A DNA stretch of 64,000 nucleotides from Escherichia coli (GTDB taxonomy: Bacteria > Pseudomonadota > Gammaproteobacteria > Enterobacterales > Enterobacteriaceae), in NCBI RefSeq assembly GCF_044324785.1, contig NZ_CP172127.1; one strand, written 5' to 3'. Shown here piece by piece: positions 45,182-64,000 of this stretch. The position numbers and the translations under genes are program-made. The notes below the pieces were generated by a model. That model saw only the letters and a program-made list of their open reading frames with translations. It made no database searches and was not told the origin of the DNA. Within the stretch, counting starts at the first letter, position 1, and the number at the start of each line of letters is the position of its first letter.

Positions 45182-45252
45182 GGTTATTTTCTCGCCGATT
45201 GATCACTATCAATTAATAATAGTTAATATTCGTGAATTGTAAAATACCTCTT

Positions 45253-46122: not shown

Positions 46123-46412
46123 CGTTTTTCCTTTTGGTTTATAAACGAAAACGCCAGCTGTATTCAGGCTGGCGTCAGGGGAATGAAGTATGGTGAGTGA
46201 TATTCACCGGTTCTGGTGCAGAAGCTGCAGTTGGCGCAGGGTACGGATATCTTCCCTGGCCTGTTCAATGCAGGGCAGCAGTGCTGTCGAATCCGTTTTA
46301 TCCTCATCGTTGTCAAAGATAATTTCCGATTCGCAGTCAATATTGTCCTGCAGCCACGCAATCAGAATATCCAGCGCTGTTTCCGTGGTTAATGATTTCA
46401 TGTTGTTCCAGG

Positions 46413-46901: not shown

Positions 46902-47275
46902 TGTTTCGCCCCCGGATGTTTACCCAGGGTAATGTTATTTACCGTTCTGTAATTTTCGCGGGCCATCAGGCCGGTTGCCCGGCGTGCCCGGAGGATATCA
47001 ATACTGTTTATTAACTGAGAACGGGTACAGGCGCTGAATCCCGGCTGGTCGGTACGTACCAGCGCGTATTTTTCAACGAGAAAGTTCACCGCATCACACA
47101 GTGAAATGCCCGCTTCAATATGCTGCTCAATCACACGTTCATCAGCGAACGGTGTGTCATTCAGCGCGAGGCCGTAGTGCTGGTCCAGTAACCGGGTGAG
47201 CAGTGTCTGCCAGATGGTGACGGGAGACGGGCAGCACGATGCCTCCCGTACATGCGTGTCGGGTAATGTTTTCAT
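46898..47275 (-). CDS. cbtA: CbtA-family toxin, copy 2
   Basis: MKTLPDTHVREASCCPSPVTIWQTLL...; track ORF trimmed. Confidence 0.8.
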   Translation of the reverse strand: MKTLPDTHVREASCCPSPVTIWQTLLTRLLDQHYGLALNDTPFADERVIEQHIEAGISLCDAVNFLVEKYALVRTDQPGFSACTRSQLINSIDILRARRATGLMARENYRTVNNITLGKHPGAKQ

Positions 47276-47364
47276 AATGAAGATTTTCCTGATATGCAGA
47301 GATAAAAAATGGGACAGTGGCGTGGTGAAAGCACCAGGCCGGAGCAGAAGGTTATTCTGGAGAG

Positions 47365-47733
47365 TTACTTTTTCGTTTCGGGCGTCGGATAAACAGCCAT
47401 ATAAACGTAGCCACAACTGCCGAGGGTGTCGGCTTCGCAGGTCAGCCCTTTTGCATACAGTGTCACGGTATGCTGATGGCGGGGATTCAGTTCACCGCTG
47501 GTGAGCATGAGTTCCAGTTGTTTCATCAGCAGCGGAAAGGCCTGGTCCAGGTGGTACGAATCCGCGTCGCTGAACCGCCCTCTAATACAGGCGCGGTCGG
47601 CAAGGTAATGCAACCGGTTGCCTTCCTGTACCAGACGGGCACCAAAACAGGGCGTCACGGTGCAGGGCAGTCCCCACCAGGTGCGGTCGTTATTGTCGTC
47701 GGGAAGCGTTGTCCCGGGGAGTGTGTCTGACAC
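47365..47733 (-). CDS. cbeA: CbeA-family antitoxin, copy 2
   Basis: 122 aa paralog of 15937-16311. Confidence 0.8.
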   Translation of the reverse strand: MSDTLPGTTLPDDNNDRTWWGLPCTVTPCFGARLVQEGNRLHYLADRACIRGRFSDADSYHLDQAFPLLMKQLELMLTSGELNPRHQHTVTLYAKGLTCEADTLGSCGYVYMAVYPTPETKK

Positions 47734-47817
47734 GATAAAATCCTCACAGAAAATTGGTTAAGAATGGTCCGGTGGTGGCGATAATTCTGCTCTTCTGAAT
47801 GCCCTTCCAGACTCAGT

Positions 47818-48034
47818 TCAGGGTGACGCTCATCAGCCGGACATACGGACCAAAACTGTCCTTCCGGCGTTCTGCAAACACAGCCAGCACACCGGGAATA
47901 TCCTGTACTTCACGGCCGGTATATGTATCCGTGCTACCGTGTCAGCGGTATTTACCGGTACAGAACGGAAAAAGACGGGATGCAGGATGCTGACGGTGAA
48001 TACGCATGGCTTCACCACGGGTGATGATTTTCAT
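47818..48034 (-). pseudogene. YeeT-family gene, copy 2, with premature stop
   Basis: Collinear with 16387-16608, but the Trp codon in GKYRWHG reads as TGA in this copy. Confidence 0.45.
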
Positions 48035-48120
48035 GAGAATAGTCCTCCTGAATGTGAAAGTAAGAAACAGCTGAGAAAGAGAAACTGAAGTGATATGAAG
48101 GTGATTGTGACGGTGACGGG

Positions 48121-48597
48121 TTAAAGCAGACCGTGTTCCGCAAAGGAGAAAACCTGGCTGCCACCGATTATCAGATGGTCCGGTACCCGGATATCCACCA
48201 GGGCCAGTGCCTGTACCAGACGCTCGGTGATAAGGCGGTCTGCCTTGCTGGGGATGACTTCACCGGACGGGTGATTGTGCGCCAGCACCACGGCAGCGGC
48301 ATTGTGGTACAGGGCGCGTTTAATCACCTCCCGGGGATGGACTTCTGTGCGGTTGATGGTGCCAGTGAAGAGGGTTTCACCGGTAATCAGCTGATTCTGG
48401 TTATTCAGATACAGCACCCGGAATTCTTCACGCTCCAGTCCCGCCATGTTCAGAATCAGCCATTCCCGTGCCGCATGCGTGGAGGTGAAGGCCACGCCGG
48501 GTTCATGAAGATGGCGGTCCAGGGCTTTCAGGGCCCGCTGAATGAGGCTGCGCTCGCCGGGTGTCATCTCTCCGGGCAGAAAGGAAAGCTGCTGCAT
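48121..48597 (-). CDS. RadC-like JAB-domain protein, copy 2
   Basis: Paralog of 16677-17153; start trimmed to MQQLSF. Confidence 0.8.
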   Translation of the reverse strand: MQQLSFLPGEMTPGERSLIQRALKALDRHLHEPGVAFTSTHAAREWLILNMAGLEREEFRVLYLNNQNQLITGETLFTGTINRTEVHPREVIKRALYHNAAAVVLAHNHPSGEVIPSKADRLITERLVQALALVDIRVPDHLIIGGSQVFSFAEHGLL

Positions 48598-48612
48598 TGT
48601 CCCTGCCTCCAT

Positions 48613-49098
48613 TCAGTCGATGATGCGCATAATGGCGCTGCATTCCGGATGCTGCAGGGCATAATCCCGCAGCCGGTAATAATGAACCGTCATGGCATAA
48701 TTCTCTGTACGACAGGCGTGATGGCTGTACGCCATCAGACAGGCGGCAATGCCGGCGGCTTCCGGGCTCATTTCAGCGCGGTTACCGTTCATGACGTTAA
48801 ACAGCACCCATGTTTCGTCATCATCGTCATCCGGTTCAGGTGCCATAAATGCGCCACCGTTGTTCAGGGTGTACAGATTCCAGATGCCCCCGCAGTAGTC
48901 TTCGCACAGACGGTCCATCCAGCCGAAGACACGGGGCTCCAGGGTCACCCACTGTGGAATGAGGCCAAAATGCTGCGGCCAGAAGCTGATGCGCTGTTCA
49001 TCAGGGACGGGAGTGGCAACCAGTTGAGACTGGTTATTCCCTGATGCAGTAGTTACGGAAACAGAAGGTGTGGTGGAGCTATGCGAAAAGGTTGTCAT
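48613..49098 (-). CDS. antirestriction protein (KlcA/ArdB-like), copy 2
   Basis: 161 aa paralog. Confidence 0.7.
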   Translation of the reverse strand: MTTFSHSSTTPSVSVTTASGNNQSQLVATPVPDEQRISFWPQHFGLIPQWVTLEPRVFGWMDRLCEDYCGGIWNLYTLNNGGAFMAPEPDDDDDETWVLFNVMNGNRAEMSPEAAGIAACLMAYSHHACRTENYAMTVHYYRLRDYALQHPECSAIMRIID

Positions 49099-49189
49099 GA
49101 GATGATTCCTTATAAAAAGTAAATGAATGGAAGAATGCCTGGGGACTGGTACAGACGTGAGTCAGGGCTGCACTTTCAGGGAAACAGCA

Positions 49190-50008
49190 TCAGCGCATGC
49201 TCTCCAGCAGCGTTTCTGCCATCACCCACAACGCCCGGTTGAGCTTAATGTCGGTATCGATGCTGTGAATGGCCCGGGTATGGATACGTTTTCCTCTGGC
49301 ACTGCGACCGGAAATCCCGCCTTTCAGCATATTTTCCTGGATGGTCTGATAAGCACTCCACAGGTCCTTACCGTAATCCTCCCGGCGTCGTGGCGTCAGA
49401 ATGTCGGTAGTGGTGACGGGCTGATGTTCATCACCATAACGGTAAGTCAGCGCCGCCTGTGCCAGCGCCTGGCGTGCCGGTGGCGGCAGGACCAGCGACT
49501 GCATGGCATCACGCTTTTCCTCAATCCGGTCAAACACGCCCACCACTTCGTAAGCACCTTCAATCACCCTGTCCACCACGTTTCCCCGGTGGGGCACCCG
49601 GACTTCTCCCAGCGACTGACCGCAGACCAAGCCATTGGTGCAGATGGCACGAAAATATCCGGGTAACATCTGATAGCTGGATGAACCGTCATGGGAGTTG
49701 AGCAGAATAATTTCAGGCACATGCTGACCGGTTATCTGTCCGGCCCGCCGCAGACGCAGCATATGTTTGGTATATTCCCGGCGGCTCTGGTCGCGCACAC
49801 GGGTCTGGCAGGCGAAGAACGGCTGAAAGCCTTCCCGCTGCAGATTTTCCAGGACGGTGATGGTGGGAATGTACGCATACCGTTCACTGCGGGAGGTGTG
49901 CCGGTCTTCTCCAAAAATACTCGGGACGTGGTACATCAGTTCTTCGCGTGTCAGTGGGCGCTCCCGACGGATCTGATTTACATGACCAAAACGACTGGCT
50001 AATTGCAT
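49190..50008 (-). CDS. DUF932-like protein (YfjQ/YafZ family), copy 2
   Basis: 272 aa paralog. Confidence 0.65.
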   Translation of the reverse strand: MQLASRFGHVNQIRRERPLTREELMYHVPSIFGEDRHTSRSERYAYIPTITVLENLQREGFQPFFACQTRVRDQSRREYTKHMLRLRRAGQITGQHVPEIILLNSHDGSSSYQMLPGYFRAICTNGLVCGQSLGEVRVPHRGNVVDRVIEGAYEVVGVFDRIEEKRDAMQSLVLPPPARQALAQAALTYRYGDEHQPVTTTDILTPRRREDYGKDLWSAYQTIQENMLKGGISGRSARGKRIHTRAIHSIDTDIKLNRALWVMAETLLESMR

Positions 50009-50097
50009 ACTTTGCTCCTTATGAATGAATTAGCGGTATAAACGAAAAGGCCGCGTCTCCCGGAGAAGACGCGGCCTGATGGATGAAATGAAGACGT

Positions 50098-50331
50098 TTA
50101 TTGCCTGAGAATTCCCTCACTGGCGAGATACGAATTTAGCTGTTTTCCGGCATCAGGTTCAAAATTCCAGCACCGCCAGCGTAGCTGCCCTTCGGCATTG
50201 CGGATAACCAGCCGGAAATGCGTTCCCTGGTCATCTTCAATAAGCACATTGCGGTAAGCTGTTGTGACGGCAACCGCCTGTTCGCGTGAGAAAGGGCCTT
50301 CGGGCAATAAAACAGGGTGGCAGTCCGACAT
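50098..50331 (-). CDS. DUF905-like small protein, copy 2
   Basis: 77 aa paralog. Confidence 0.55.
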
Positions 50332-50336
50332 ACCGG

Positions 50337-51014
50337 CTATTTTCCGATAAATTCAACGCTGGCGCCGGTGGCATTACCGTCAGCACCAACCGTGACGGTC
50401 ACTTTGTCGTACGCACGGTCTTCAGGATTGAATACTTCAAACTCAACCTTATTGCCTTTTACTTCGTAAGAGCCAAAATCAGCGGTTTCTGTTGTTTCCT
50501 CGTCATATTCCCGGGCGTATGCCTGCCGGGCAGCCTGCAGGACGGAATCTTTATTAATAGTGGTCGTCTGTTTCGGGGAAAAACCGGCAAGTGATGTGAC
50601 AAATTTCGGACAGACCTTCAGCATATCACCGCGGGTGAATTCCATTCGTACACCAAATGCCTGTAAAACGGACACATCACGCTCTGCTATGGAGTGAACG
50701 GCTTTTTTGACCATTTCCGGCGCCTGTCCGATTTCCACCTCAACAGCCCTGAATCCCGTCTGCTGATTACACATTTGTGATGTGGGGATCAGGTTACCGT
50801 TAATACTGATACGGCTGCCCAGGAGCGTCTGTACGCCATTCGGGCATCCCTGCATCAGGCCGGTAATACCAATCGTGCCATTTTTCAGCATTACCAGCGC
50901 CTGACCATCTTCCGTCATGGTCTGACACCAGCCGTTTTTGACAGCCCAGTTGCCGGCGGAGGCGGAGAATGATGCCACAGTGAACAGCAGGGGAAAAAGA
51001 GCTCTGGTATTCAT
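50337..51014 (-). CDS. secreted hypothetical protein (signal peptide)
   Basis: Track ORF trimmed to [20 protein letters not shown] signal peptide. Confidence 0.5.
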
Positions 51015-51161
51015 GACTGACCTCTGAAATGAACGTACGGTGTTATTGATAATGATGGAAGGTATGCAGTGACTGTTCAGGGAATGACGTAGCCGTATAT
51101 TTAGTTTTCTGTTCAACATATTGTCTCCATACCTGTCGGGACGGCTTTGGCAGGCCGGCGA

Positions 51162-51842
51162 TCACAGGTTAAAGGTGTTGATAAGTTTATGGATGAAAGA
51201 GAAATGTGGCAGGGCGGAGATAAAACGCTCTTCAGCGACCAGACTGTGGATGTGGCCTCTCCGTTCAAACCGTTCTGATGTCAGGCTGACTGATTTGATA
51301 TCTGCCAGAGGAAAGACCTGCAGTTTTCCCTTCTGTAACGCGATCAGATACCAGCTACCGCTGTAATAAATGAGCCGGCAGGGCTCCAGTGACGGATACC
51401 ATCGCTCAGTCATCAGAGAGATGTGGATACACTGTCTTATTGCCAGGATGAGTTGCGAGAAACACTCGGGGAACGTTGCAGTGATATCCGGCGCCGGTAG
51501 CCAGATAAGGCAGGGAGAGGGCTCCTGGTTGTCGGTAAGACAGGTTATCAGTCGTCCGTTCCGGAGCGGAAGTATCCGTGCGATCCCGGTATTCTGTATA
51601 AAAGAAAGCATTTCAGGGATCGCACCCGGGCTGCTCTGTCGTCTGAGGCTGTACCTGCCATTTCTGTACTCTAAATCCAGGTGAACCAGACGCTGATGAA
51701 AATCGCGCTGTAAAGTACGTTCTGTAACGCCAAATTCATCTGACAGTGTTTTTAGTGACAGAGATTCTCCGGCCATCAGTCGGCTGATAATGAGTGATAA
51801 GCGAACCGCCAGGCGATCATGCCGGGAACGATTATCAGACAT
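51162..51842 (-). CDS. YfjR-like transcriptional regulator (HTH plus WYL-like domain)
   Basis: N-terminal HTH SLKTLSDEFGVTERTLQRDF; conserved position next to the GTPase. Confidence 0.6.
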   Translation of the reverse strand: MSDNRSRHDRLAVRLSLIISRLMAGESLSLKTLSDEFGVTERTLQRDFHQRLVHLDLEYRNGRYSLRRQSSPGAIPEMLSFIQNTGIARILPLRNGRLITCLTDNQEPSPCLIWLPAPDITATFPECFSQLILAIRQCIHISLMTERWYPSLEPCRLIYYSGSWYLIALQKGKLQVFPLADIKSVSLTSERFERRGHIHSLVAEERFISALPHFSFIHKLINTFNL

Positions 51843-52044
51843 AGATGTGCACTCCGTAAGAAAACATCTTTTATTTCATGATGTTATTATGCATCATGAT
51901 GTTGAAAGGATGTGTCGCATCCGGATAATCAGGAATAAAATGCAGCAGAAAAAATATTCTTTTAATTATCTGATTTTTAAGCATGATTTCATAAAAAGAA
52001 GAATGCTCGTTAATGCAGCGACACATCCTGTCGGCGTGAGTGTG

Positions 52045-52929
52045 TCAGAACAGACGCTCCCACAGTGTGATCAGCAGGTGGATAATGCGGTCCCGGGCTT
52101 TACGCAGAAGCTGTAACATCCAGGCCGGAAAACTGAAACGGGCAACGGCGACGTCAAAACTTTTCCCGATGGTTTCACCAAAAGTCTGTTGTGCGTGTTT
52201 CTGGGCCTGTTCAGAGCGGTTTTCTCCCCGGATATGTGAATACACCGCGCTGGTTGCCTGTGGTGGCAGTGCGTGGATCATCAGCGACACAAACGCCGGA
52301 AGGTTCCAGCCGACAGGTGCAGCAACGGAGAGTACCGGAAATGATGAAGGGAACAGGGTTGCCACCCGGGCTGTCACCGTCGCCAGTGAGAGCGACTGCT
52401 GACGGGACGGGCATTTTTCTGTGGCATTCCATTCTTCAGCAGGAAACACGCGATCGGCATGGCTGAGAACAAACAGAAAACGCGAGGGATCTGCGCCTTC
52501 ATTCAGTAAAAACTGATGCATGGCAATATCAGCAGCATACGCACGTTCATCAGCCCGCAGGATCCAGATAATCAGATCCAGTTCCGGTAGCAGCTGACGA
52601 TAAAGTGTCCGGTATTCCTGATCATGCTGCGGTGTTTCACCAATGCCGGGCAGATCGACCAGCGTCATTCTGCGTTCACCGAACTGCAGGGTAAGACGAT
52701 GAGCCTGGCGGGTGCAGCCGTTCAGAGGATGTGTGGCGCAGATACGGGACTGAAAAATGGCATTACACAGACTGCTTTTGCCTGTTCCGGATTTACCCAT
52801 AATGCCAATCACGGGCTCGTAATGAATAACACTGTGGAGATGTTCAAGGATTTTCTGGCGAATTTCTTCAGGAAGAAACGTCAGATGTGATTTCACTTGT
52901 GCGGAGAGGGAAGAATGGCTGAATGACAT
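52045..52929 (-). CDS. YeeP/YfjP-family GTPase, second copy
   Basis: P-loop GIMGKSGTGKSSL; 294 aa. Confidence 0.75.
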   Translation of the reverse strand: MSFSHSSLSAQVKSHLTFLPEEIRQKILEHLHSVIHYEPVIGIMGKSGTGKSSLCNAIFQSRICATHPLNGCTRQAHRLTLQFGERRMTLVDLPGIGETPQHDQEYRTLYRQLLPELDLIIWILRADERAYAADIAMHQFLLNEGADPSRFLFVLSHADRVFPAEEWNATEKCPSRQQSLSLATVTARVATLFPSSFPVLSVAAPVGWNLPAFVSLMIHALPPQATSAVYSHIRGENRSEQAQKHAQQTFGETIGKSFDVAVARFSFPAWMLQLLRKARDRIIHLLITLWERLF

Positions 52930-53034: not shown

Positions 53035-53997
53035 ATGACGGCACAACAAAGTGATGCGCTGCGTGAGATTGCTAATAAGGCCAGAGTTACCACCATTCTT
53101 CAGTGTAAGGCCTGGAAAGATACCCAGCGAATACTGAAGCGCAGCGGACTCGTGTGCAGAGAACGGTCAGAGCCGTTTGATCCGGAGAAACATTTTGACT
53201 GTTATACGGTGCGTTATCTGTACCTGCTTAACATAATGGCACTTGAGCTAAAGTCAGATACACGGATTAAGGTTGAGGTGGGGCAATGGTATCGCATGAC
53301 GGGTAAACGTTTATCACTTAATGTCCCGCCTTTTATGCTGATCCCGCGTAATATCCGGAGAAAAGTGGACGGATTCAGACAATCCAGACAATCAGAAGAT
53401 GAAGCAACCAAAAATCCGCCTCAACCGTTCACGGGCAGTTTGTATAAGGTTTTGAGCAGGGACAGCGATTCGGCTGAGCTGGACGCCTGGTTTGCTGAAC
53501 CGCCGCTGACACGGCAGGAAGTGTGGGAGGGGAGGCGTGTTACAGATTTTGATCCATGGGCGCTGTCTTCGTTTATTTGCCGTTCAGAATCCCCGACGTT
53601 TGAACTTTTTTACCAGGAATATAAGCGACTGGGATTAAAATCTCTTTTTGTATCAGGGGTAATGTTTGAACAGTTTTTAACAGGGCTAAGTTTCAGAAAA
53701 TATGGGGACTGGGTTGAATCTCAGTTACTGGAATCACTGGGAAATGTGATGTTTTTCATGCTGCTTTATGACATGGAAAATCTGGATAAGTTTATAAAAG
53801 AACTGATGGACATTAATGTTCAAAGTGAAGATTCGAAGGAAAAAGGGAAATCACGAAAAGAGAGAATGCTGGAGTATATCAACTCATATATCCGCAATGT
53901 TTATGGAAGATTCCTTTGTACGTCAAAAGAAAGGTACGAACAGCATAAACGCAAAAACAGCAGCAAAAAGAAAAACGGTTCTGGTGGAACTCATTAA
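53035..53997 (+). CDS. hypothetical protein (orphan)
   Basis: 320 aa, ATG with GGGAGG SD; Lys-rich C-terminus; no recognisable motif. Confidence 0.5.
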   Translation: MTAQQSDALREIANKARVTTILQCKAWKDTQRILKRSGLVCRERSEPFDPEKHFDCYTVRYLYLLNIMALELKSDTRIKVEVGQWYRMTGKRLSLNVPPFMLIPRNIRRKVDGFRQSRQSEDEATKNPPQPFTGSLYKVLSRDSDSAELDAWFAEPPLTRQEVWEGRRVTDFDPWALSSFICRSESPTFELFYQEYKRLGLKSLFVSGVMFEQFLTGLSFRKYGDWVESQLLESLGNVMFFMLLYDMENLDKFIKELMDINVQSEDSKEKGKSRKERMLEYINSYIRNVYGRFLCTSKERYEQHKRKNSSKKKNGSGGTH

Positions 53998-54848
53998 CGG
54001 GAATAATCCCCTGCTGTTTTCTGCATAAACAGACGATCAGCTGATAAGATGAGTTTATCCAGCATTTCAGCCTGCGTCAGATTATTCTTTTTTGCCATTT
54101 TCCGGAGTGCATTCCTGGCTTCCGGAGAAATCAGGGCACTTATCTGTACCCGGGAATCGGTTTTCTCATACCGGAACATTTTCTGGTATGAGCACTTCAT
54201 GCGCCTGAGAAAATCATTCTGCTGATAAACTAATTCTTTTAACTTTTGAGGTTCAGTACCGACAGAATAGATTTTCATGAAGACACGGCGCACATAAGCT
54301 ATTATGAACAGACGTGACTCCCCTGAAGCTTTAAATTCTGAAATATCAGGACAGTGACGTTCTTCGTCAGTGCAATGTTTTTGCAGATACGCCCATGCCC
54401 ATTTGATATGTATCCGCCGGGAACCAAGCCATGTCATGGGGTTCACTTTTTCAGCATATGACCATAAAAAATGAACGACATACAAGAAGTCAGATACATT
54501 TTCTGTCCCGGTTAGCCTTATAAGCTCCTGTAGCCATTTTCTCGTCACACGAATCCTTGCCTGATGATTAGCTGGAGCTGCTTCTGTGGCAAACAGTCTG
54601 GCATACAGACAGGAAGTTCCGTAATCTGCATATTGCTCACCTGAGAGTCGGACAATACTGTCAGGAACATGATATATAAACATCCATACCCAGAATGCGG
54701 CTACAGGGTCTTTTTGCACCCACTCCGGAACAACGTCTCTGCCTGCATTATCAGCATTAACAGAAGGTGATTTATCGTTATGTCGGTAATATTCATATTC
54801 CATCCGACTAAAAACATGATCAGATTCATCTGGTGAATGCACAGACAT
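53994..54848 (-). CDS. hypothetical protein with C-terminal RHH-like segment
   Basis: Track ORF 53994-54863; preferred start MSVHSPD preceded by AGGGAG; 3' end overlaps the convergent gene by 4 bp. Confidence 0.5.
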   Translation of the reverse strand: MSVHSPDESDHVFSRMEYEYYRHNDKSPSVNADNAGRDVVPEWVQKDPVAAFWVWMFIYHVPDSIVRLSGEQYADYGTSCLYARLFATEAAPANHQARIRVTRKWLQELIRLTGTENVSDFLYVVHFLWSYAEKVNPMTWLGSRRIHIKWAWAYLQKHCTDEERHCPDISEFKASGESRLFIIAYVRRVFMKIYSVGTEPQKLKELVYQQNDFLRRMKCSYQKMFRYEKTDSRVQISALISPEARNALRKMAKKNNLTQAEMLDKLILSADRLFMQKTAGDYSR

Positions 54849-55810
54849 GAACTCCCTGGGCATAAATGCACAACCAACTCTATAGAACTCTTTACCCCCC
54901 CTCTTATCACCTCTGTCAGTAAATTTCGCCTGAATCCCCTTTTATCCATACATCAGAAAAAATGCAATAACGTTCATGGACTCTTTTCTCTGATTTACAT
55001 AAAAACACAGAAAATTACAATGTGATTAATATCGCGTTTTTTTAAAAAATTATATTGACATCATGTTATTTCCTGTAGTTTGCAATAAAAAATTTTCTTA
55101 AAATATTTATATGAATATTTTTGATGCCTCAACATGCTGTCGTTATATAGAGTGTCTTCTCATCATTTATGGTTATTTCTCTCAATGCGCATACGCTCTG
55201 TCAGGGCATGTCTGTAGCTGCCATGATGGGGAATGAGAACTCAGCAAAAGGATTTTGGATGCAGTGAAGTTCTCCCGGAGACGGTTCTTCTGAGGTGGGG
55301 GTGGCATCATATCCTCTTACATAAGATGATGGCGTGCGCGGGAAAGCTTTCTTCTGTACTCAGGTTGTTGTTGGTTATCCCCGGTCGTCATTGTTTTCCT
55401 GACATTAAGATCCTGATTCCAGGATCTATAGCACAGTCGTTTCCTTGTGTGCTGTTATGCTTCTGCTCAGTTCAGAACAATTGCTTCATCCGGCATGGAG
55501 AATTCCGGTGAGTGAGGCAGTAAGAAATGACTGACATGAATGTTATATGTGAAGGGGCCGGAGAGACGTCATAATCAGTATGGCTGTCATTCTGGCTGGA
55601 AAATGCGATCACTTTCCGGGGTAAAAGACAACATGGAAGCTGACGAACGGGATGCTCCGGATGGTCTTTTCAGGGAGGCCTGGGTAAATAATTTCAGAGT
55701 AAATCTGTATGTTTTTTAAACAGTAAAGATCCATGCTGGCCGTGAAAAACTGAAATCAACACTCAGTCTGCATGGATGTCTGAAGATGTTGAGAATGTCG
55801 GGAATGGTAC

Positions 55811-55906
55811 TATACACGTATTTTACTAAGTATTTTTACTAAGCATTTCAGTAAGTGTTATACACGTATTTTCTACTAAGTGTTTTACCAGACATACACG
55901 TATTTT
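55811..55906. repeat. iteron-like direct repeats (T)ATACACGTATTTT x3 with associated ACTAAGT motifs
   Basis: Three copies spaced about 35-48 bp apart inside a 1.6-kb non-coding region. Confidence 0.45.
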
Positions 55907-56468
55907 CATAAACACTTCTACAAGTGTTTTCGTTAAGCATTGCTATACACATCCAGTTTAGTAAATCTTTACGTTAACTAAATCAGTTTAATGCTGCTGT
56001 AAAACCTTTCTGTTTAAGCAATCAATCTGCTATTCGATTTTACTGATGTTACGTTTAACCTTTCCTTAGATTTCGAGTTTCGACGTTAGCTTGAGAAAAG
56101 TATCTTTACGTAAAGCCCAGTGAATTAACTCAAATCCGATTGAGGTAACCTGATGCGATTTACTGTGAGTTTGCGATAACACTGTTAAATGGCTTATGGA
56201 TGATTTTGTAACGGCGAGATTGATAAGGTGATTAACTGGCCCTGGTGTTTTTTCTCAGCGTAAGGTGATTATCTTCATCATAAGGCTCTTTTCAGAAAAA
56301 GTGTGATGATTGGTTGTGGTGTTTTGATTCAGATGAGGATCTGCCAATGATTATGATGTATTGTAAGAAATAACGCCTTCAGAATGTTGGAGCATGCACT
56401 TACACAAACTGTTTTTCTAAAATTAAGGGAACAGTTTAAAGAGTATAAACTGTTCATCTTCTTCAGGA

Positions 56469-56999
56469 TTAAGCTACATTGTTGTTATGACTGACAGGAT
56501 TGTTTTCTTCCCCTGACTCTGGGCTTAACAGTCCCTGGCGTTGTAGATATTCACTGACTGACATTCCAGAACTACGGATCCTGTCAGAGATTTTACGAAA
56601 TTGATCCTTCCATTCTGCAGGTAATTTCTTAATTTGTCTGACTTTACAGGCTACACTGTACGGGGTTCGCCCTAGTTTCTCTGCCAGCCAGAAAAGGTGT
56701 TTACCAATTTCATCGTCCGGTACATCCTCCAGAACATCTCGCAATAAACTCTCGTCTGCCTCATTCCATGCCACACCAGCATTTGGGAAACGAGGATCGA
56801 TCTCTCTTTCCTTCTTCTCCTTCTTACTTTGCTCTTTTCGGGATGATACAGATACGACAGAACGTTCTTTTACCGCTGTAATTGCCATAACTGCATTGAG
56901 CAGAGATCTGCGCTCCACATCGTTCAGCATTTTTCCTTCACAGATCAAATCATTCAGGATGTCAATGACTAGATTCAGACTTTCTTCTGTTAGCTTCAT
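56469..56999 (-). CDS. hypothetical protein (orphan)
   Basis: 176 aa; charged central linker; no recognisable motif. Confidence 0.5.
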   Translation of the reverse strand: MKLTEESLNLVIDILNDLICEGKMLNDVERRSLLNAVMAITAVKERSVVSVSSRKEQSKKEKKEREIDPRFPNAGVAWNEADESLLRDVLEDVPDDEIGKHLFWLAEKLGRTPYSVACKVRQIKKLPAEWKDQFRKISDRIRSSGMSVSEYLQRQGLLSPESGEENNPVSHNNNVA

Positions 57000-57668
57000 A
57001 TTTCAGACCTTGAAGTATGTAGATAATCAGCACAATTACTAATGTGATAAATATCAGAAGATAATTTACAGGTAAACCGGAAAATACATCTGAAGAATAA
57101 AGGCCTCAGCTTAACGTTTCAGCCAGTTTGTGAGCTGATTGAGGTACGGCGATGACATTAACGGGAATTACTCCCCTATAGCTCTGAGCTTATTTTTCAC
57201 CCTGGCAACATATGGTGGCTACTGCGCATGGTTTTGGAGTAGATATCTTACTACTCGTAGAATTGTGCTTACTGGTCAGGCCAGCGCACAGGCATTCCGT
57301 GCAATCAATAGAACACTGGTTTTTTAGTCTTCCGTTACCCATCAGGATGTTAGTGCAGATTCCGGTGTATTCGATCAGTTGTTCGGCGAATCAGCGATCG
57401 ATCACGATGCGATTTCGTATGTTAGGGATGCTGGTATGATTACTCGCTGAAAAATAATGTGAAAAGGCAGTTTTTCTTTAGACATTTAGCTCATTCATGC
57501 TGTTGTTTTACGTTTTGCTGTCGTGTGCAGGATTATCTTTTCGTTACGGGACGATTCATTCCGTTTTAATCAGGAGCTATTGGCGTTGCTCATTGGTGGG
57601 ATGCCGTAAAGTTTTACCGCGGCGATTAATGATGTGAAGTCAATCCAAATCAACGGAGATCTCTCATC

Positions 57669-58400
57669 ATGAATCAACCAATACACAATGATTACTGGTT
57701 ATCCCGTTTTGAAAGTATTCTCAACAGTGCCCTGGTGCAACACCGTGCCGTCTCGTTAATCCGGGTGGATTTACGTTTCCCTGAGCATATGCCTGTCACC
57801 ATCATGGATCCCGATCCGGATTCAGCGGTGATTTCTCGTTTTTTCGAATCCCTGAAAGCCAAAATTCAGGCTTACCAGCGGAAAAAACGACGTACCAACA
57901 AGCGTGTGCGTGCAACCACCCTGCATTATTTCTGGTGTCGGGAGTTTGGCAAGGAAAAAGGCAGGAAACATTATCACGTGATATTACTGCTCAACAAAGA
58001 TACCTGGTGCTCGCCAGGGGATTTCACCGTTCCTTCTTCGCTGGCGACGCTGATCCAACTGGCATGGTGTAGCGCTCTGCATCTTGAGCCCTGGCAGGGT
58101 AATGGACTGGTTCATTTTTCCAGGCGGACGCCTTTCCGTAAACCGGCATCATCTGATGCTCGCCCTTCTTCCGATGATACGCCTTTGTCGGGTGGATGTT
58201 CTGAAACCAGGAAGGCTTCAGACAAAAAGCCGGGTGAAGCCGCTGTTCTCTGGATCAAGCGTGGTGATGTGGAAGCGATGCAGAAAGCCATGGAGAGAGC
58301 CCGTTATCTCGTGAAGTATGAGACGAAGCAGCATGACGGTTCTGGTCAACGTAATTATGGTTGCAGCCGTGGAGCGGGGCGTCTACTGGATGGCAGGTGA
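57669..58400 (+). CDS. YagK-like inovirus Gp2-type protein (HUH replication-initiator-like)
   Basis: 243 aa; HUH motif HYHVILLL; SD GGAGA. Confidence 0.65.
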   Translation: MNQPIHNDYWLSRFESILNSALVQHRAVSLIRVDLRFPEHMPVTIMDPDPDSAVISRFFESLKAKIQAYQRKKRRTNKRVRATTLHYFWCREFGKEKGRKHYHVILLLNKDTWCSPGDFTVPSSLATLIQLAWCSALHLEPWQGNGLVHFSRRTPFRKPASSDARPSSDDTPLSGGCSETRKASDKKPGEAAVLWIKRGDVEAMQKAMERARYLVKYETKQHDGSGQRNYGCSRGAGRLLDGR

Positions 58401-58726
58401 ACCCTGTAAAAAGGCATCCGGTGCCAGAGTATATGTCACAGTAAGGGCGTGGTTGACGCCCTTAGCTCGTTTTCTGAAAAAGTCGTCCTGAAGTCATGCA
58501 ATGTTTCCTGGTTTTCATGCATCCATCATTTGTCGCTGCGATGCCAGACTTCTGGATGCACACATGTTGTTTTACTTTTGTCAGCATCATAAATGCGCCG
58601 GGACTGGTGAATGGAGATAAGCCATTTTATTATCGACGTCAGCGAACATACTCACCATGCCGGTATGTTCCTGAACTGAACAATAAGTTTTGCGCTGATT
58701 ACAGTATGTGAAGGAGGTCCGTTACA

Positions 58727-60331
58727 ATGAATTCCGCTTATATGCAATCCTTGCAGACATCCCACCACTTCCCAGCTGATTTAACCTACAGATTATTTCC
58801 TAGTGAGCTTGCATATCTCATTGACGACTTATATGAAAGTACCCAACTTCCGCTGGAGCTCATTTTTAATACTGTACTGGCAACGCTCTCACTCTCCTGT
58901 CAGTCACTGGTTGACGTTGTTCATCCTCACACCAACATGCCGGAACCCTGCTCACTTTATCTGTTGGCAATCGCAGAGCCAGGCGCGGGAAAAACAACGA
59001 TAAACAGACTGGTGATGAACCCCTGTTACGAATTTGCCGATCGACTCATTCAACAATACGAAGAGAGAAACAAAGATTATAAGACTGAACTACAGATCTG
59101 GAATACCCGGCAGAAAGCGCTTGCTGCCAATTTAAGAAAGGCTGTTAACCGGGGGTATCCGGGGGAACAGGAAGAAGAGGCGCTGCGTAATCACGAAAGA
59201 AATAAACCGACACGTCCGGTTCGACCGAATTTTATCTATGAAGATGTTTCGCTTAAAGCGCTTGTGGAAGGGCTCAATGAACATCCTGAGGCAGGGGTTA
59301 TTTCTGACGAGGCGGTCACTTTTTTCAGAAGCTATCTGAAAAATTATCCGGGCCTGTTGAATAAAGCATGGAGTGGACAACCGTTTGATTTTGGACGGGC
59401 TGACGAGAAATACCATATCACGCCACGTCTGACATTTTCGTTAATGTCCCAGCCGGATGTCTTTACGAATTATATAAATAAAAATGACGTACTGGCGTGG
59501 GGAAGCGGATTTCTTTCCCGGTTTCTGTTCAGTCAGACCGGAAGTCCTTCCCGGGTACGGGATTATACGAGAGGCGAGTTCAGAACAAAACCAACCCTGG
59601 AGAAGTTTCATAAAAAGATTAACGGATTTCTGTTAAGCCATAACATTAATTCCCCCGGTATGAGCACCGAAAGGAAAACATTAAAACTTGCAAAGAAAGC
59701 GTTGGGGGAGTGGCAGGAAAACCAGATTAAGATTGAAAGAAAAGCGCTTGCAGGAGGGGAGTGGGAACACATCAGAGATATTGTTCTGAAAGCAGGTTCT
59801 AATATACTGAGGATAGCTGGAATATTCACCTGCTATTGCTATAAAGATGCTGAGGAAATTGAATCAATTGCGCTTTTTAAAGCTATGCATCTCATGGACT
59901 GGTATCTGGAGGAGGCGAGCACAATATTTTATCCCATGTCTGCACGATGCCAGTTTGAACAGGATGCCTGTGAACTGTATGCATGGATTATGACCCGAAT
60001 AAGGCAGAATAATTGGCGTGCTATCAGGAAAACAGACATTGAAAGATATGGTCCCAATCGTCTGAGAAGAGCAGAAAAACTTACACCTGTACTCAATCAG
60101 TTAATCGCTCAAAATTATTTCCGTATCATCAAGATGCGATCGCATCAGGCACTTTATGTTTCTGCTCTTGATAATAATGGTTACATCCTTCCTTTCGGCG
60201 CAATGTCTTACGAACCGTTTGATATTGTTCCACCCCAGTATAACCATAATGCGAAAACATATTCCGTTGTTATTCCACCGGCATTAATTCAGTCATTTAC
60301 ACCTGATTCCTCAGCTTACACCTTATTTTAA
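58727..60331 (+). CDS. YfjI-like island protein with Walker A-like P-loop
   Basis: 534 aa; AEPGAGKTT motif; strong SD GAAGGAGG. Confidence 0.6.
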   Translation: MNSAYMQSLQTSHHFPADLTYRLFPSELAYLIDDLYESTQLPLELIFNTVLATLSLSCQSLVDVVHPHTNMPEPCSLYLLAIAEPGAGKTTINRLVMNPCYEFADRLIQQYEERNKDYKTELQIWNTRQKALAANLRKAVNRGYPGEQEEEALRNHERNKPTRPVRPNFIYEDVSLKALVEGLNEHPEAGVISDEAVTFFRSYLKNYPGLLNKAWSGQPFDFGRADEKYHITPRLTFSLMSQPDVFTNYINKNDVLAWGSGFLSRFLFSQTGSPSRVRDYTRGEFRTKPTLEKFHKKINGFLLSHNINSPGMSTERKTLKLAKKALGEWQENQIKIERKALAGGEWEHIRDIVLKAGSNILRIAGIFTCYCYKDAEEIESIALFKAMHLMDWYLEEASTIFYPMSARCQFEQDACELYAWIMTRIRQNNWRAIRKTDIERYGPNRLRRAEKLTPVLNQLIAQNYFRIIKMRSHQALYVSALDNNGYILPFGAMSYEPFDIVPPQYNHNAKTYSVVIPPALIQSFTPDSSAYTLF

Positions 60332-60930
60332 AACAATTTTGTGAGTAGAAAACGAAAATCATAATCCTTCGAATGAAGGTTGATGATAAGGTGTGTTGCA
60401 TATCCTGCACCTGTGCAAATATTCACCAATTATTGGGTGTGAATGAAAATTTCTCTGAAAAAATCGCTATGGTAGCAACAGTAGCAGCACATACACTACA
60501 TCTGTGATTTGGTTTTGTTTTCATAATGACCTGCTGTCAGAGCTGATTGAATGCTGGGATGTGCGCACTGGTGGAAGAGTGGTTTTCGTTTCAGATATAA
60601 CGAAAGGCAATCGAAAGATTGTTTTAAACATGGATTAAAGCTAATCATTAACCATATTGTGTGAGTTTTTATATATAAGTTTGTTTGATTCTTGCCGTGA
60701 TGAGTGCTGGGGTATATGACGATGTCGCTCTCTTTCTGAATAACAAATTATTATTCGTCTGTTACTGATAAGGGATGCGATTCATGTTTTAATAGATGGT
60801 TGAAGAAAATTAATTTGATATTTTTTTTGTAAGGGAATGGAACTGTCCGGAATATGTTCAGAACGGCGGATTTCTCATTTCCATTCATTAAACATGGATA
60901 ATTTTAATTTAGGTTTATTACTATTATTAT

Positions 60931-61045
60931 ACTCACTCCCTTTTTGATATAATCTCTATTGTTATTTACTTCCTGTCTTTACTCACTCCCTTTTTCATAC
61001 AATCTCTATTGTTATTTACTTCCTGTCTTTACTCACTCTCTATCT
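60931..61045. repeat. 50-bp tandem direct repeat (about 2.3 units)
   Basis: ACTCACTCCCTTTTTGATATAATCTCTATTGTTATTTACTTCCTGTCTTT repeated immediately with two mismatches, then a partial third unit. Confidence 0.6.
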
Positions 61046-61920
61046 TTACGATTATATTCACTCTATCGTTACACATTCCATTAGTATTACTCTTGTTATC
61101 GTATTCATTCCATCCCTCAATCATATTTACTGTAACTCATATGATGTTCAGGTAAGTTATTCTCTACCATTCTACTGATGATATTCATCTGTTCTCATTT
61201 TCACTGAAACAGCAATTAATTTTAATCTTATCCATCATGAGCTGTATTTTCTTAACAATGGTTGTTTATCTGAAGTGTTTTAACTATTCTGATGAACATC
61301 AATTCTTTTGTCATTACTGATTAACCGAATGTTTACTTTTTGATAAGGTATCCATGATTCTGTAACGATTAACAGAGCTGGATAAACAATGGAATTGACA
61401 GGAGAGATTCCTGATTATGTTTGTTCTGGGTTGTATTATCTAAGATGCAGGATGAAAATCATGTCAGTGGTATTTTTTATTCTGCTATCGTGAGCCGTGA
61501 ATGTTCATGTCCTTAAGAACAGATTGAATGAGCGCATATAAGTTTATTGCATTGGCCTTGTACACAGTTTTTACAACCACTGAGAGCAAGTTTGTAGTTT
61601 ATGATGTGATTGGTCGCAATATGTTTCTTAACCTTCTGGACGTGGTGTTTTATCGCGTATTTACAGTATTTCGTGATGTTTTATTGAGTCTGTATTTTCT
61701 TTACTCCTCGTTTATCTCATCTCTTTAGCTAATACCATCAGATAATCCATTTCTTTCTGCATAATGCTGCGTATCGTTAATAACCCGTCGTATCCATTCT
61801 GCTACAGCATGCCTGATAAATACCATCTGTAAGTTATTACCGTTTTAGATCTGATTATGAGCGAAAGCATTAATTCGTTCACAGAGCTTAAAACATCATT
61901 AACTTTCAGGAGTCATCAAC

Positions 61921-62487
61921 ATGCCTAAATCTTACACACCAAACTGGTTTTTTACCGCTTTACTTGACAATCACATCAATCAAATGATGGCACGCTATTC
62001 CTGCCTGCGGGCCTTACGGATGGATTTCTTCTACAGGAAAGATACGCCTGATTTCTTACAACCTGATCATCGCTGGCTTGAATTGCAGTTGCGTATGCTG
62101 CTGGAGCAGGTGGAACAATTTGAAAATATCGTTGGTTTCTTCTGGGTGATTGAATGGACGGCTGATCATGGTTTTCATGCGCATGTGGTTTTCTGGATCG
62201 ATCGTCAGAGGGTTAAAAAAATATATCCCTTTGCGGAGCGGATAGCGGAATGCTGGCGGTCTATTACGCATAACAGCGGTTCGGCACACCGCTGTACATA
62301 TCAGCCGCATTATACATACAACATCAACATTCCTGTGCGCCACAACGATCCTGAAAGCATCGATAATATTCGCGGTGCCCTGCATTATCTGGCAAAAGAA
62401 GAGCAAAAAGACGGGCTGTGTGCCTACGGCTGCAATGAAGTTCCTGAACGTCCTGCTGCAGGGCGTCCTCGTAAGCCTCACTTCTGA
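61921..62487 (+). CDS. YfjJ-like inovirus Gp2-type protein (HUH replication-initiator-like)
   Basis: 188 aa; HUH motif FHAHVVFWI; SD AGGAG. Confidence 0.7.
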   Translation: MPKSYTPNWFFTALLDNHINQMMARYSCLRALRMDFFYRKDTPDFLQPDHRWLELQLRMLLEQVEQFENIVGFFWVIEWTADHGFHAHVVFWIDRQRVKKIYPFAERIAECWRSITHNSGSAHRCTYQPHYTYNINIPVRHNDPESIDNIRGALHYLAKEEQKDGLCAYGCNEVPERPAAGRPRKPHF

Positions 62488-62744
62488 AGCTTAAATCCTG
62501 AGCTTCCTGTCCTGGAAACACTCCGTCGGTAAAAACTTACCGCCTTGCTTAATGATGTGAACTGAAGTCAACGGAGATCATTCACTCTGAACCACATCCG
62601 GTGTTCTGTCCCTTGTCGGTGACCTGATCTTCCCGTTCTGCCCCGGTTCTTCACTTATTCCATCAACCCCATCCGCAAACCATAACACGTCAGCTTATTC
62701 ACGGGCAGGACGCATTGTGGGCTGCGCATAACGGAGCATATCTT

Positions 62745-63305
62745 ATGAATGCTATCCCTTATTTCGACTATAGCCTGGCCCCCTTCTGGCCATCTTATCA
62801 GAACAAAGTCATCGGCGTCCTTGAGCGTGCGCTGCGTGAGCAGTCCGGCTCACGGATACGGCGGATCCTGCTTCGTCTGCCGTGTGAATATGACAATACC
62901 TTCAACAGCAGAACGACCTGGTTTGGTATGGATTTTATCGAAACCGTCAGTGCGCTGATGAATGCAACACCCGGACGTGACCTTTGCTGGCTCCTGACCC
63001 GTCATCCTGAAAAACCGGAATACCATGTGGTGCTGTGCGTCAGACAGGAGTATTTCGACGGCCCCGAACTGGATCGGTTGATTCTGGATGCCTGGAGTAA
63101 CGTGCTGGGTTTCGCGTCACCAGGTGAAGCAAAGCCGTACCAGAAGCAGATCACCCGGGATGTGGTACTGGATCGCCGGTCACCGGACTGCGAAGCCCTG
63201 TTTAAGGACCTTATCTGGGCGTTCAGTGATTTCGCCCGCGATCGCCGTGGAGTGCGCGATCCGGAAGCCCGTTGCCTCGCCGGTAATCCCGGTTGGCAGT
63301 GCTGA
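62745..63305 (+). CDS. YagK/YfjJ-related protein with partial HUH motif
   Basis: Track ORF starts at TTG 62715; ATG at 62745 after ACGGAG; motif PEYHVVLCV has one His only. Confidence 0.5.
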   Translation: MNAIPYFDYSLAPFWPSYQNKVIGVLERALREQSGSRIRRILLRLPCEYDNTFNSRTTWFGMDFIETVSALMNATPGRDLCWLLTRHPEKPEYHVVLCVRQEYFDGPELDRLILDAWSNVLGFASPGEAKPYQKQITRDVVLDRRSPDCEALFKDLIWAFSDFARDRRGVRDPEARCLAGNPGWQC

Positions 63306-63373
63306 AAGCAGCATTCCATCCCATACCTCGTATTACCCCATTCTTCATCAATCTCACAGAGGATATTCTGACC

Positions 63374-63607
63374 ATGTTGACCACAATAAGCCACGACAGC
63401 GTGTTGCTGCGTGCCGACGATCCCCTGATCGACATGAACTACATCACCAGTTTCACCGGCATGACCGATAAATGGTTTTACAGGCTGATCAGTGAAGGTC
63501 ATTTCCCTAAACCCATCAAACTGGGGCGCAGCAGCCGCTGGTACAAAAGTGAAGTGGAGCAGTGGATGCAGCAGCGAATTGAGGAATCACGAGGAGCAGC
63601 AGCATGA
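63374..63607 (+). CDS. alpA: AlpA-family transcriptional regulator, second copy
   Basis: ITSFTGMTDKWFYRLISEGHFPKPIKLGRSSRWYKSEVEQW; track ORF trimmed to MLTTISH after GAGGA. Confidence 0.8.
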   Translation: MLTTISHDSVLLRADDPLIDMNYITSFTGMTDKWFYRLISEGHFPKPIKLGRSSRWYKSEVEQWMQQRIEESRGAAA

Positions 63608-63696
63608 AACGTGTTGTAATGCCAGTACGCTGGCAATGTGCGAAATGCCGGCGCTGGTATTGTGGAAATCAGCCCTGTCCCTGGTGCTGGCGCTGA
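63604..63696 (+). CDS. candidate 30-aa Cys-rich small ORF translationally coupled to alpA
   Basis: ATGA overlap with alpA stop; MKRVVMPVRWQCAKCRRWYCGNQPCPWCWR has two CxxC pairs. Confidence 0.3.
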   Translation: MKRVVMPVRWQCAKCRRWYCGNQPCPWCWR

Positions 63697-64000
63697 CAAC
63701 TCCCGCTCATCTTTCTGCTGGCACCCTCTGGCCAGCCAACTGTTTGTCATCATTTCCTGACTGATTCGTCATTCCCTTCGTCCCGCCAGTCACTGGTGTT
63801 TGTATCGTACCGTGCCGGTGTCGATGTGCGCTTTCCGTGTGTCTGGTCTGCACCGGCTTAACAAAATTCAACGGGGATAAAATAGTGCAAATAACCGAAG
63901 CCTTACTTTCAGCGCCGGGGGAAATCCGGCGTTTTGTTCAGCAGGCGGTGGACCACTGGCCAAATCTGTTGGCATTTCACTTCACGCTCCATTCGGCAGA

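Follow-up and report, generated by a model that had tools for sequence, protein, structure and literature searches.

The right-hand part (positions 53035–64000) of a 64,000-nucleotide stretch of Escherichia coli DNA (contig NZ_CP172127.1, assembly GCF_044324785.1; hereafter the window) contains eight genes, designated A to G and alpA, all of them uninterrupted and without internal stops, followed by the start of a further gene that runs past the window end. Three of the eight (D, F, and G) and the truncated gene are members or relatives of the YagK/YfjJ family of HUH-type proteins, E encodes a YfjI-family protein, and two long gene-free spacers lie among them. This segment is almost certainly the conserved backbone of a CP4-57-family genomic island at tRNA-Phe (pheV type) with a P4-type integrase. 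CP4-57 and CP4-6, the "cryptic prophages" of E. coli K-12, are relatives of the island, which in the window stands in tandem with another.

Genes D and F are predicted to encode Rep-class HUH proteins, in which the HUH motif comes before the tyrosine, with all catalytic motifs present. Gene D (57669–58400, plus strand) is a predicted YagK/YfjJ-family endonuclease of this class with approximately 30% identity to K-12 YfjJ, and its product matches the Pfam families YagK_YfjJ_C (formerly "Inovirus_Gp2"; 5.9e-36) and REP_ORF2-G2P (1e-7). Gene F (61921–62487, plus strand), the second predicted Rep-class HUH gene, matches the same families (REP_ORF2-G2P, 4.5e-5; YagK_YfjJ_C, 1.7e-4), and some of its homologues are named "rolling circle replication-associated protein". 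Each protein was aligned with relatives down to 36%–39% identity, drawn from Providencia, Morganellaceae, Brenneria, Klebsiella, Citrobacter, Serratia, and Xenorhabdus. Motif I (RVDLRF), the histidines H101-Y-H103, and Y213-x-x-K216 of D are nearly invariant in its family alignment, and the equivalent positions of F (motif I RMDFFY, read as RxDLFY in the family; H86-A-H88; Y156-x-x-K159) are nearly invariant or invariant. Compared with hhalign, the D and F families align along their entire length, at a probability of 94.6%. Both proteins are short and single-domain, and both carry the HUH metal-binding motif and the tyrosine C-terminal to it that mark the Rep class of the HUH superfamily. D and F share with the rolling-circle initiators of filamentous phages and small replicons (REP_ORF2-G2P) a Rep-order arrangement of motif I, HUH, and one Tyr-x-x-Lys. 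The island proteins differ from those initiators in their setting, as proteins of 188–243 amino acids encoded on a large integrated island by several paralogues, some of them catalytically dead.

The initial annotation counted three HUH initiator-like genes. Two of these, D and F, are competent by their motifs, with catalytic tyrosines at Y213 and Y156, but the third, G, has neither the first histidine nor the tyrosine, and a fourth member is cut at the window end. Gene G (62745–63305, plus strand) is a divergent YagK/YfjJ relative directly upstream of alpA. It had no match in Pfam, and a word-indexed search found its relatives in E. coli only; an exhaustive search added two proteins at 33%–35% identity. 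A G profile that includes these two matches the D family at 97.7% in profile comparison, the 35%-identical relative matches PF11726 at 1.7e-10, and G itself matches K-12 YfjJ weakly. Pairwise BLASTP among D, F, and G gave no link, and only profile comparison joins the three. At the HUH position, the G family reads E/C/F-Y-H (E-Y-H in G), and at the tyrosine position SD[FM]ARDR in place of Y-L-x-K. Because the first HUH histidine and the catalytic tyrosine are missing, G probably cannot be a nickase and is probably a non-catalytic DNA-binding protein. The fourth YagK/YfjJ-like gene has a GTG start and contributes 115 nt to the window (63886–64000, plus strand); it was recognized from the RefSeq names of its counterparts, "UCP030791 family" or "inovirus Gp2 family". 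Since the counterpart in relative L001 (17150–17698) reads IRCLLLL at the HUH position, this paralogue is probably non-catalytic too.

Structure models of D and F are consistent with a Rep-type nuclease fold, although the case rests mainly on the sequence motifs. The F model (predicted local distance difference test score, pLDDT, of 87) had 24 neighbours at E ≤ 1e-3 among the predicted viral structures of BFVD, approximately half of them unnamed and the best (template modeling score 0.72) named "Inovirus Gp2". Besides "Inovirus Gp2", the named ones comprised NS1 nickases of parvoviruses, proteins with ORF2/G2P domains, and a single adenovirus protein, itself uncharacterized. The D model (pLDDT 77) gave nothing better than E 0.02 in Foldseek, with an archaeo-eukaryotic primase (AEP) primase-polymerase at the top of a list that included the nuclease domains of adeno-associated virus (AAV) Rep and NS1. 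In the PDB, structure matches to NS1, AAV Rep, and Sulfolobus islandicus rod-shaped virus (SIRV) ORF119 were weak and stood among generic folds of the ferredoxin-like and AEP kinds; sequence searches there, run with the D and E proteins and a profile of the F family, returned nothing. In phage databases, D had one match in 50,697 phage records, and the D family occurred at 6 loci among the 2.9 million viral contigs of IMG/VR, all on uncultivated virus genome (UViG) contigs of 43–80 kb.

The two remaining proteins of the module, a YfjI-like protein with a Walker A motif and AlpA, had also been proposed from the open reading frames (ORFs), and profile searches bore both out. Gene E (58727–60331, plus strand) encodes a YfjI-family P-loop protein that matches DUF3987 at 2e-74 and phrog_2373 ("DNA helicase") at 5.6e-43, with canonical Walker A (AEPGAGKT, residues 83–90) and Walker B (VISDE, residues 191–195) motifs. 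It is 31% identical to K-12 YfjI, which at the Walker A position reads GERKS against GAGKT in E; Walker B (SDEA) is kept in both. By analogy, E is a putative 5'–3' helicase, as the DUF3987 protein AgaPH is a Walker A/B-dependent 5'–3' helicase on a tRNA-integrated element (PMC11724360). Both proteins combine DUF3987 with Walker A/B on an integrase-bearing element with defence cargo, but AgaPH has an N-terminal PriCT domain and an AEP primase-polymerase partner, whereas E has HUH neighbours, no primase part, and no primase beside it. Its relatives in phage records are helicases of only 22%–25% identity. The AlpA-family excisionase or transcriptional activator (63374–63607, plus strand) matches PHROG excisionase/regulator families at 7e-10. 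Its counterpart in ET358, an E. coli relative that is 97% identical over the right-hand 3.7 kb (60300–64000), is named an AlpA-family regulator. An NCBIfam scan gave nothing above cut-off.

The backbone module is under purifying selection and is not decaying, in agreement with the initial view that it is no inert remnant. This follows from the intact ORFs, the catalytic motifs kept in two HUH genes, and ratios of nonsynonymous to synonymous divergence (dN/dS), computed against three relatives, of 0.03–0.52 (AlpA, 0.03–0.16; G, 0.13–0.29; F, 0.15–0.19; E, 0.28–0.34; D, 0.26–0.52).

The boundaries and layout of the island place it in the CP4-57 family. Its left end is marked by an 18-nt tRNA-Phe 3' end (TTCCGAGTCCGGGCACCA; 44329–44346, minus strand), a distal direct repeat (att remnant) that was found as a 23-mer tRNA-Phe match with two mismatches where 0 were expected. 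ET358 has the same repeat (17/18) at the equivalent place and an intact pheV at the opposite end. From pheV to that 17/18 copy of the 18-mer, the ET358 island measures 36.6 kb. Its first half reads, in order, pheV tRNA-Phe, integrase, approximately 16 kb of cargo (type II Zorya and insertion sequence (IS) elements), AlpA, G, F, YfjI, and D; the second half consists of a block from YfjP to DUF4942, ParDE, and the 17/18 repeat, followed by a truncated integrase and core genes. In other relatives, the cargo position holds Dnd/Dpt, or a type VI secretion system with haemagglutinin fragments. The window island runs from 44347 to past 64000 (more than 19.7 kb) with its own integrase still not reached. 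A tRNA scan of the window found no intact tRNA gene; the right end of the island lies outside the window, and the integrase and intact pheV are known from ET358 only. An integrase and an intact tRNA-Phe had been expected further to the right; they lie there in ET358, approximately 16 kb beyond AlpA, which fits the 18-nt fragment at 44329–44346, and they very probably lie to the right of the window as well.

Between the repeat and gene A is the conserved island core (44595–52929, minus strand), delimited from ORFs, RefSeq names in relatives, and PHROG matches. It encodes a ParE/ParD-like toxin–antitoxin (TA) system, DUF4942, DUF957, and DUF5983 proteins, a CbtA/YeeU TA system, DUF987 and RadC/JAB proteins, a KlcA-type antirestriction protein, DUF932 (YfjQ-like) and DUF905 proteins, a hypothetical protein, a helix-turn-helix (HTH) regulator (YfjR-like), and a YfjP-type GTPase. 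The counterparts of K-12 YfjP, YfjR, and YfjQ in the core are 36%–74% identical to them. All parts of a CP4-57-type island are accordingly represented: a P4-type integrase at a tRNA or transfer-messenger RNA (tmRNA) gene with a distal direct repeat (the repeat in the window, the integrase and pheV in ET358); a module of AlpA, YfjI (DUF3987), and YfjJ/YagK; and a module of YfjP GTPase, DUF932, antirestriction, RadC-like, and CbtA/YeeU-type TA genes.

Such islands are common. Related DNA is carried by 2999 of 5426 complete E. coli genomes (~55%), at a median of two places per positive genome, and the segment 60300–64000 is covered to at least 80% in 806 genomes. RefSeq already names the counterparts in relatives "inovirus Gp2 family protein", "YfjI family protein", and "AlpA family transcriptional regulator", and a survey of pheU, pheV, and selC islands lists Gp2-family proteins and YfjI as backbone of unknown function (PMC6174562). 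The window is another ordinary copy of this annotated island type, and the gene combination is the standard CP4-57-type backbone and not special to it.

CP4-57 itself matches the window gene for gene at 21%–74% protein identity, with the AlpA, YfjI, and YfjJ counterparts at 21%–35%. The order in K-12 is ssrA-intA-yfjH-alpA-yfjI-yfjJ ... yfjP-yfjQ ... antirestriction-RadC-like-yfjZ/ypjF, and CP4-6 has yagK. Both the module of AlpA, DUF3987 (YfjI), and a YagK/YfjJ HUH protein and the module of YfjP GTPase, DUF932, HTH (yfjR), antirestriction, RadC-like, and CbtA-type TA genes are common to CP4-57 and the window, as are, across the window family, intervening defence cargo (AbpAB and RnlAB in CP4-57) and a P4-type integrase that adjoins a tRNA or tmRNA gene. 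The arrangement differs. In the window, the AlpA/HUH/YfjI module has the opposite orientation and lies directly against the YfjP module, and the cargo falls between the AlpA module and the integrase; there are four HUH paralogues rather than one; and the site is pheV rather than ssrA.

The same linkage extends beyond E. coli, where we examined four relatives that belong to other genera. Morganellaceae, Brenneria, and Klebsiella all have an HUH gene and alpA on one strand, opposite a GTPase/DUF932/antirestriction block on the other, and defence cargo comes after them. The HUH gene adjoins alpA in Morganellaceae and Brenneria and lies approximately 1.4 kb from it in Klebsiella, with two small genes between. 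Because these variants have one HUH gene and no DUF3987 gene, the unit conserved across genera is HUH plus AlpA at the cargo boundary, with YfjI and the extra paralogues as additions. The slot directly after HUH/AlpA differs in each genome (L013–L017, covering Morganellaceae, Brenneria, and Klebsiella) and holds different anti-phage cargo each time: a 2146-amino-acid NACHT/AAA protein; a KAP NTPase with QatB and TatD; a WYL protein; or a type I restriction-modification system together with an OLD-family AAA/TOPRIM gene and, after it, a gene weakly similar to UvrD. This junction behaves as a defence-gene hotspot.

The non-coding DNA of the island is concentrated in two 1.6-kb spacers, at 54864–56468 (36%–39% GC over most of its length) and 60332–61920 (32%–38% GC), which the initial annotation had rightly described as long non-coding stretches. 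Neither contains an ORF of more than 92 codons, and four annotated relatives have no coding sequence in the counterpart spacers except for an IS3 element inserted in the first spacer of ET358. A permissive Rfam search of 42000–64000 gave only two sub-threshold chance hits. The first spacer contains a repeat array (55811–55940, plus strand) made of three copies and a partial fourth of TATACACGTATTTT, interleaved with approximately five of TTTTACTAAGYAT. Three copies of the 13-mer ATACACGTATTTT fall within a 95-bp segment (55812–55906), against 0.11 copies expected in the whole window, and the 13/14-mers are spaced by 13, 34, and 48 bp in AT-rich DNA. The iteron-like repeats previously reported at 55811–55906 are thus real, and they are a candidate protein-binding site, whether origin or operator. 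Iteron origins typically have at least three direct repeats of 17–22 bp in helical phase, with an AT-rich unwinding element and the gene of the cognate initiator close by. The array is present in all four relatives that have the first spacer (L001, L002, L004, and L005); a recombination mosaic may explain why it is nearly identical to that of L002.

Other repeated elements lie in or near the second spacer and upstream of the HUH genes. A 50-bp tandem repeat was reported at 60931–61045, and it exists (60930–61038, plus strand; 2.2 copies, or two full copies plus 9 nt), but it is private to the window. It is single-copy in L001, in L004, and in the eight best genome hits, where a 90-nt query across the tandem junction maps in two pieces onto a 59-nt stretch. 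The surrounding 60930–61150 is a pyrimidine-rich tract of loosely repeated ACTCACTC, ATTCACTC, and ATTCATTCC, and it is the most indel-prone and most divergent part of the spacer between relatives. By comparison with L002, only the last ~150 nt of this spacer before F are well conserved (3 mismatches per 100). A leader element upstream of D (57606–57676, plus strand) has a counterpart in the F–G intergenic region (62529–62594). The two are ~70 nt long and 71%–74% identical, with an exact core of TTACCGC-N5-TTAATGATGTGAA where none is expected by chance. They might serve as a shared site of regulation or recognition, or be left over from the duplication from which G arose. Single-stranded DNA folding of all four spacers on both strands gave nothing exceptional (best z −2.6 over 60 windows), and a scan for promoters and terminators was uninformative, with fewer promoter-like sites than in shuffled sequence.

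The remaining genes of the segment lie at its left. Gene A (53035–53997, plus strand; 320 amino acids), described from ORF and profile scans, is of unknown function and neighbours the YfjP GTPase. Compared with L002 8001–8963, it has 22 scattered amino-acid differences and hardly any synonymous ones (dN 0.030, dS 0.005, ratio ~6; p ~0.015 by a rough binomial estimate), which could reflect diversifying selection or chance. Gene B (53994–54863, minus strand; 289 amino acids) has profile matches to a C-terminal ribbon-helix-helix (RHH) domain like those of RepA2/CopB and Arc (NCBIfam PRK13702, 7.5e-5, below its cut-off; PHROG Arc-like, 0.006). RefSeq names its L002 counterpart "replication regulatory RepB family protein", and B is likely to be a DNA-binding regulator. 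Gene C (56469–56999, minus strand; 176 amino acids) is of unknown function, with no significant match to a known family, Pfam included, and a NikA-like match at a non-significant 0.025.

Further left, a second P4-type integrase (42869–44131, minus strand; 35% identity to IntA) belongs to another island. It immediately adjoins the 3' fragment of tRNA-Phe, which puts two islands one behind the other at pheV. The left one of the pair carries IS elements, and kps capsule and Ag43 genes lie further left in the window. The E. coli strain TUM9803 (L003) matches window 1–24000 at 99.8% and then diverges into an integrative and conjugative element (ICE). Within its region 5784–7321, a feature annotated as tRNA-Ser ends with the same 18-nt tRNA-Phe 3' sequence, is placed between an integrase and a PFGI-1/SPI-7-type ICE, and is not called as a tRNA by ARAGORN.

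We propose that the island, once excised through AlpA, is copied by rolling-circle replication initiated by its own Rep-class HUH protein, a reading to which we assign a probability of roughly 40%. In this scheme, AlpA would switch on the distant integrase, and the island would excise as a circle. An active HUH protein (D, F, or both) would then nick a cognate site in the non-coding DNA of the island, for which the array at 55811–55940 and the conserved leader sequences that precede D, F, and G are candidates, and the 3'-OH would prime rolling-circle copying by a host polymerase. YfjI might do the unwinding in islands that have it, and a host helicase in variants without it, while the non-catalytic paralogue G and the RHH protein B could serve as site-binding regulators. 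The excised island would thereby be amplified transiently, would be lost less often, and would offer material for transfer to a helper, be it phage or conjugative element. There is precedent in ICEBs1, which replicates by rolling circle after excision using its HUH relaxase and a helicase.

Several observations weigh against this reading. The variants in Morganellaceae, Brenneria, and Klebsiella lack YfjI, so the pairing of HUH protein and helicase is not obligatory. CP4-57, the K-12 relative, is not maintained as a plasmid, because its excision, which AlpA drives, occurs at less than 1e-5 per cell, and overexpression of alpA cures it (PMC3105296). No nick site or origin was identified in the non-coding DNA of the island. 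The array is 1.7 kb from the nearest HUH gene, and its divergence from L005 (~7%) equals local synonymous divergence, so that it is no more conserved than synonymous sites. We therefore rejected its conservation as proof of function, the region being a recombination mosaic. The hairpin at 55910–55929, the sole clean one in the array, was rejected as a nick site since it is broken in L002 and L005, and the 50-bp tandem was rejected as an origin feature since it is a private duplication in a hypervariable tract. The spacer at 60332–61920 evolves about neutrally, with a Jukes–Cantor distance of 0.22 from L002 against a synonymous divergence of 0.12–0.18 in flanking genes. Finally, literature searches naming the YagK/YfjJ family returned no experiment on any of its proteins.

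A rather unlikely alternative is that the HUH-fold proteins have no role in replication or transfer and are domesticated DNA-binding regulators or slowly decaying passengers. The AT-rich spacers would then be H-NS-silenced filler and decayed genes, and the island would move rarely, by integrase excision together with generalized transduction or recombination. The paralogues argue for part of this view: G, and probably the fourth paralogue too, has lost its catalytic residues and yet is under purifying selection, so non-catalytic roles do exist in the YagK/YfjJ family. The near-neutral, AT-rich spacers (32%–39% GC), the rare excision and subsequent loss of CP4-57 (PMC3105296), and the unknown function given to these genes in published descriptions (PMC6174562) point the same way. 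What this view does not account for is that, in both the D family and the F family, the HUH histidines and the Tyr-x-x-Lys motif stay nearly invariant all the way from E. coli to Providencia, Brenneria, Klebsiella, and Xenorhabdus. Such invariance would not be needed for DNA binding alone, and dN/dS is about 0.5 or lower.

The motif order of D and F also bears on a second, improbable alternative, in which the island is an integrative mobilizable element. Here, the HUH proteins would be relaxases acting at a non-coding origin of transfer (oriT), a co-resident conjugative plasmid or ICE would move the single-stranded DNA, and the adjacent antirestriction, RadC, DUF932, and TA genes would act like a plasmid leading region. 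The minus-strand core does consist of typical plasmid and ICE leading-region genes in one orientation next to the HUH genes, RHH proteins like B are often relaxase accessory factors, and a ProQ/FinO gene comes next in relatives. Rep-like HUH relaxases are known in mobilizable elements. In classical relaxases, however, the tyrosine precedes the HUH motif, whereas D and F have the Rep-class order of HUH and then tyrosine. Annotated relatives have no mobilization (MOB), coupling-protein, or type IV secretion system gene in the island, the NikA-like match of C is not significant, and the folding analysis of the spacers described above found no strongly folded hairpin resembling a single-strand promoter.

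It is very improbable that the HUH and DUF3987 genes form an island-borne anti-phage defence system outside the life cycle of the island itself. Nuclease and helicase pairs are common in defence, and the neighbourhood is rich in it (Zorya II, Dnd/Dpt, Qat, and the OLD-family nuclease gene with its weakly UvrD-like partner in relatives; AbpAB and RnlAB in CP4-57), but PADLOC gave no match for D, E, F, or G, and all four lie in the conserved backbone, not in the variable cargo slot.

The initial annotation favoured a phage satellite related to phage-inducible chromosomal islands (PICIs). One part of that description stood: no structural, packaging, or lysis PHROG matched any of the 18 island proteins scanned, and no such genes are annotated in relatives. 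Gram-negative PICIs and P4-like satellites resemble the island in having an integrase, an AlpA-type regulator, a replication-type protein, and no tail or lysis genes (PMC10085698). The island is two to four times larger, its alpA is away from int, and it has no packaging-redirection, capsid-size, primase, or alpha protein. Where PICIs are compact (~7–18 kb) with alpA beside int, ET358 has 36.6 kb and a separation of ~16 kb; terS, ppi/rppA, and capsid-morphogenesis genes are absent; and a DUF3987 helicase-like gene and HUH genes are present, with no primase domain. Of the P4 set (psu-delta-sid, epsilon (ash), alpha primase-helicase, int, and alpA), only an alpA-type gene was found. [quoted passage not shown] PICMIs are ~6 kb, lie next to fis, have no HUH gene, and encode a DUF3987 protein that is called a primase (with DUF5906), whereas our island is far larger and occupies a tRNA-Phe site. 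At best, the island scores as a "Type C PICI" (int, AlpA, and replicase) in SatelliteFinder, a class that its authors set aside as unreliable (PMC10085698).

A PICI- or P4-like satellite, induced by a helper, replicating from an iteron origin, and packaged into helper capsids, is therefore barely credible here: AlpA, the DUF3987 protein, and the integrase of ET358 are the three Type C markers, PICMI uses the same trio, and structural and lysis genes are absent, but the island is too large (36.6 kb in ET358, at least 19.7 kb in the window, against ~6–18 kb for PICI, P4, and PICMI), alpA and int are far apart, scans of the island proteins found no primase, terS, ppi/rppA, capsid-morphogenesis, psu/delta/sid, or epsilon gene, phages hold only distant relatives of YfjI and one record matching D, and the presumed origin repeat at 60930 is duplicated in the window only.

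The island is thus not a PICI or a P4-like satellite. This does not count against a satellite-like way of working, for which the nearest functional precedent is I55. The tmRNA-linked Pseudomonas islands I23, I44, and I55 are transduced by the jumbo phage JPTI55, and I55 is excised, forms circles or concatemers, and is enriched 1000-fold over the chromosome in packaging (Zhao et al. 2025, PMC12595487). I55-type islands and the E. coli island both span tens of kilobases and lack genes for transfer or packaging. In each, int sits at the tRNA-like end, variable defence cargo follows, and the conserved distal region includes RadC, an HTH protein, an inovirus Gp2-like protein, and AlpA; in the published Pseudomonas islands, the Gp2-like gene is next to AlpA (PMC12595487). 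This likeness is one of layout and gene families. I55 has YqaJ, and neither DUF3987 nor the YfjP/CbtA set is reported for it. By analogy, a helper-phage lifestyle of the kind published for I55 is possible. More broadly, the core of AlpA and a Rep-class HUH protein, with the DUF3987 helicase optional, might be a dedicated excision-and-amplification module, and the islands non-PICI, helper-dependent replicative satellites; we regard this as speculative and unlikely to hold in full. If it did, the commonest tRNA-linked islands of E. coli and Enterobacterales, with their virulence and anti-phage cargo, would be the counterpart of the jumbo-phage-packaged Pseudomonas I55 islands, and the catalytically dead paralogues would be origin-binding regulators.

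How pathogenicity and defence islands without transfer genes move between strains is a long-standing open question. The point worth following here is the linkage of alpA with a Rep-class HUH gene that is catalytically intact by its motifs, conserved across Enterobacterales; the module may plausibly be active. Because the backbone occurs in over half of complete E. coli genomes and K-12 carries homologues (alpA-yfjI-yfjJ and yagK), standard strains lend themselves to a direct test of whether the excised island is amplified by an HUH nickase linked to AlpA. If it is not, widespread HUH-fold genes would need some other role. If it is, a very large group of islands would gain its missing replication step and a pointer to its helpers.

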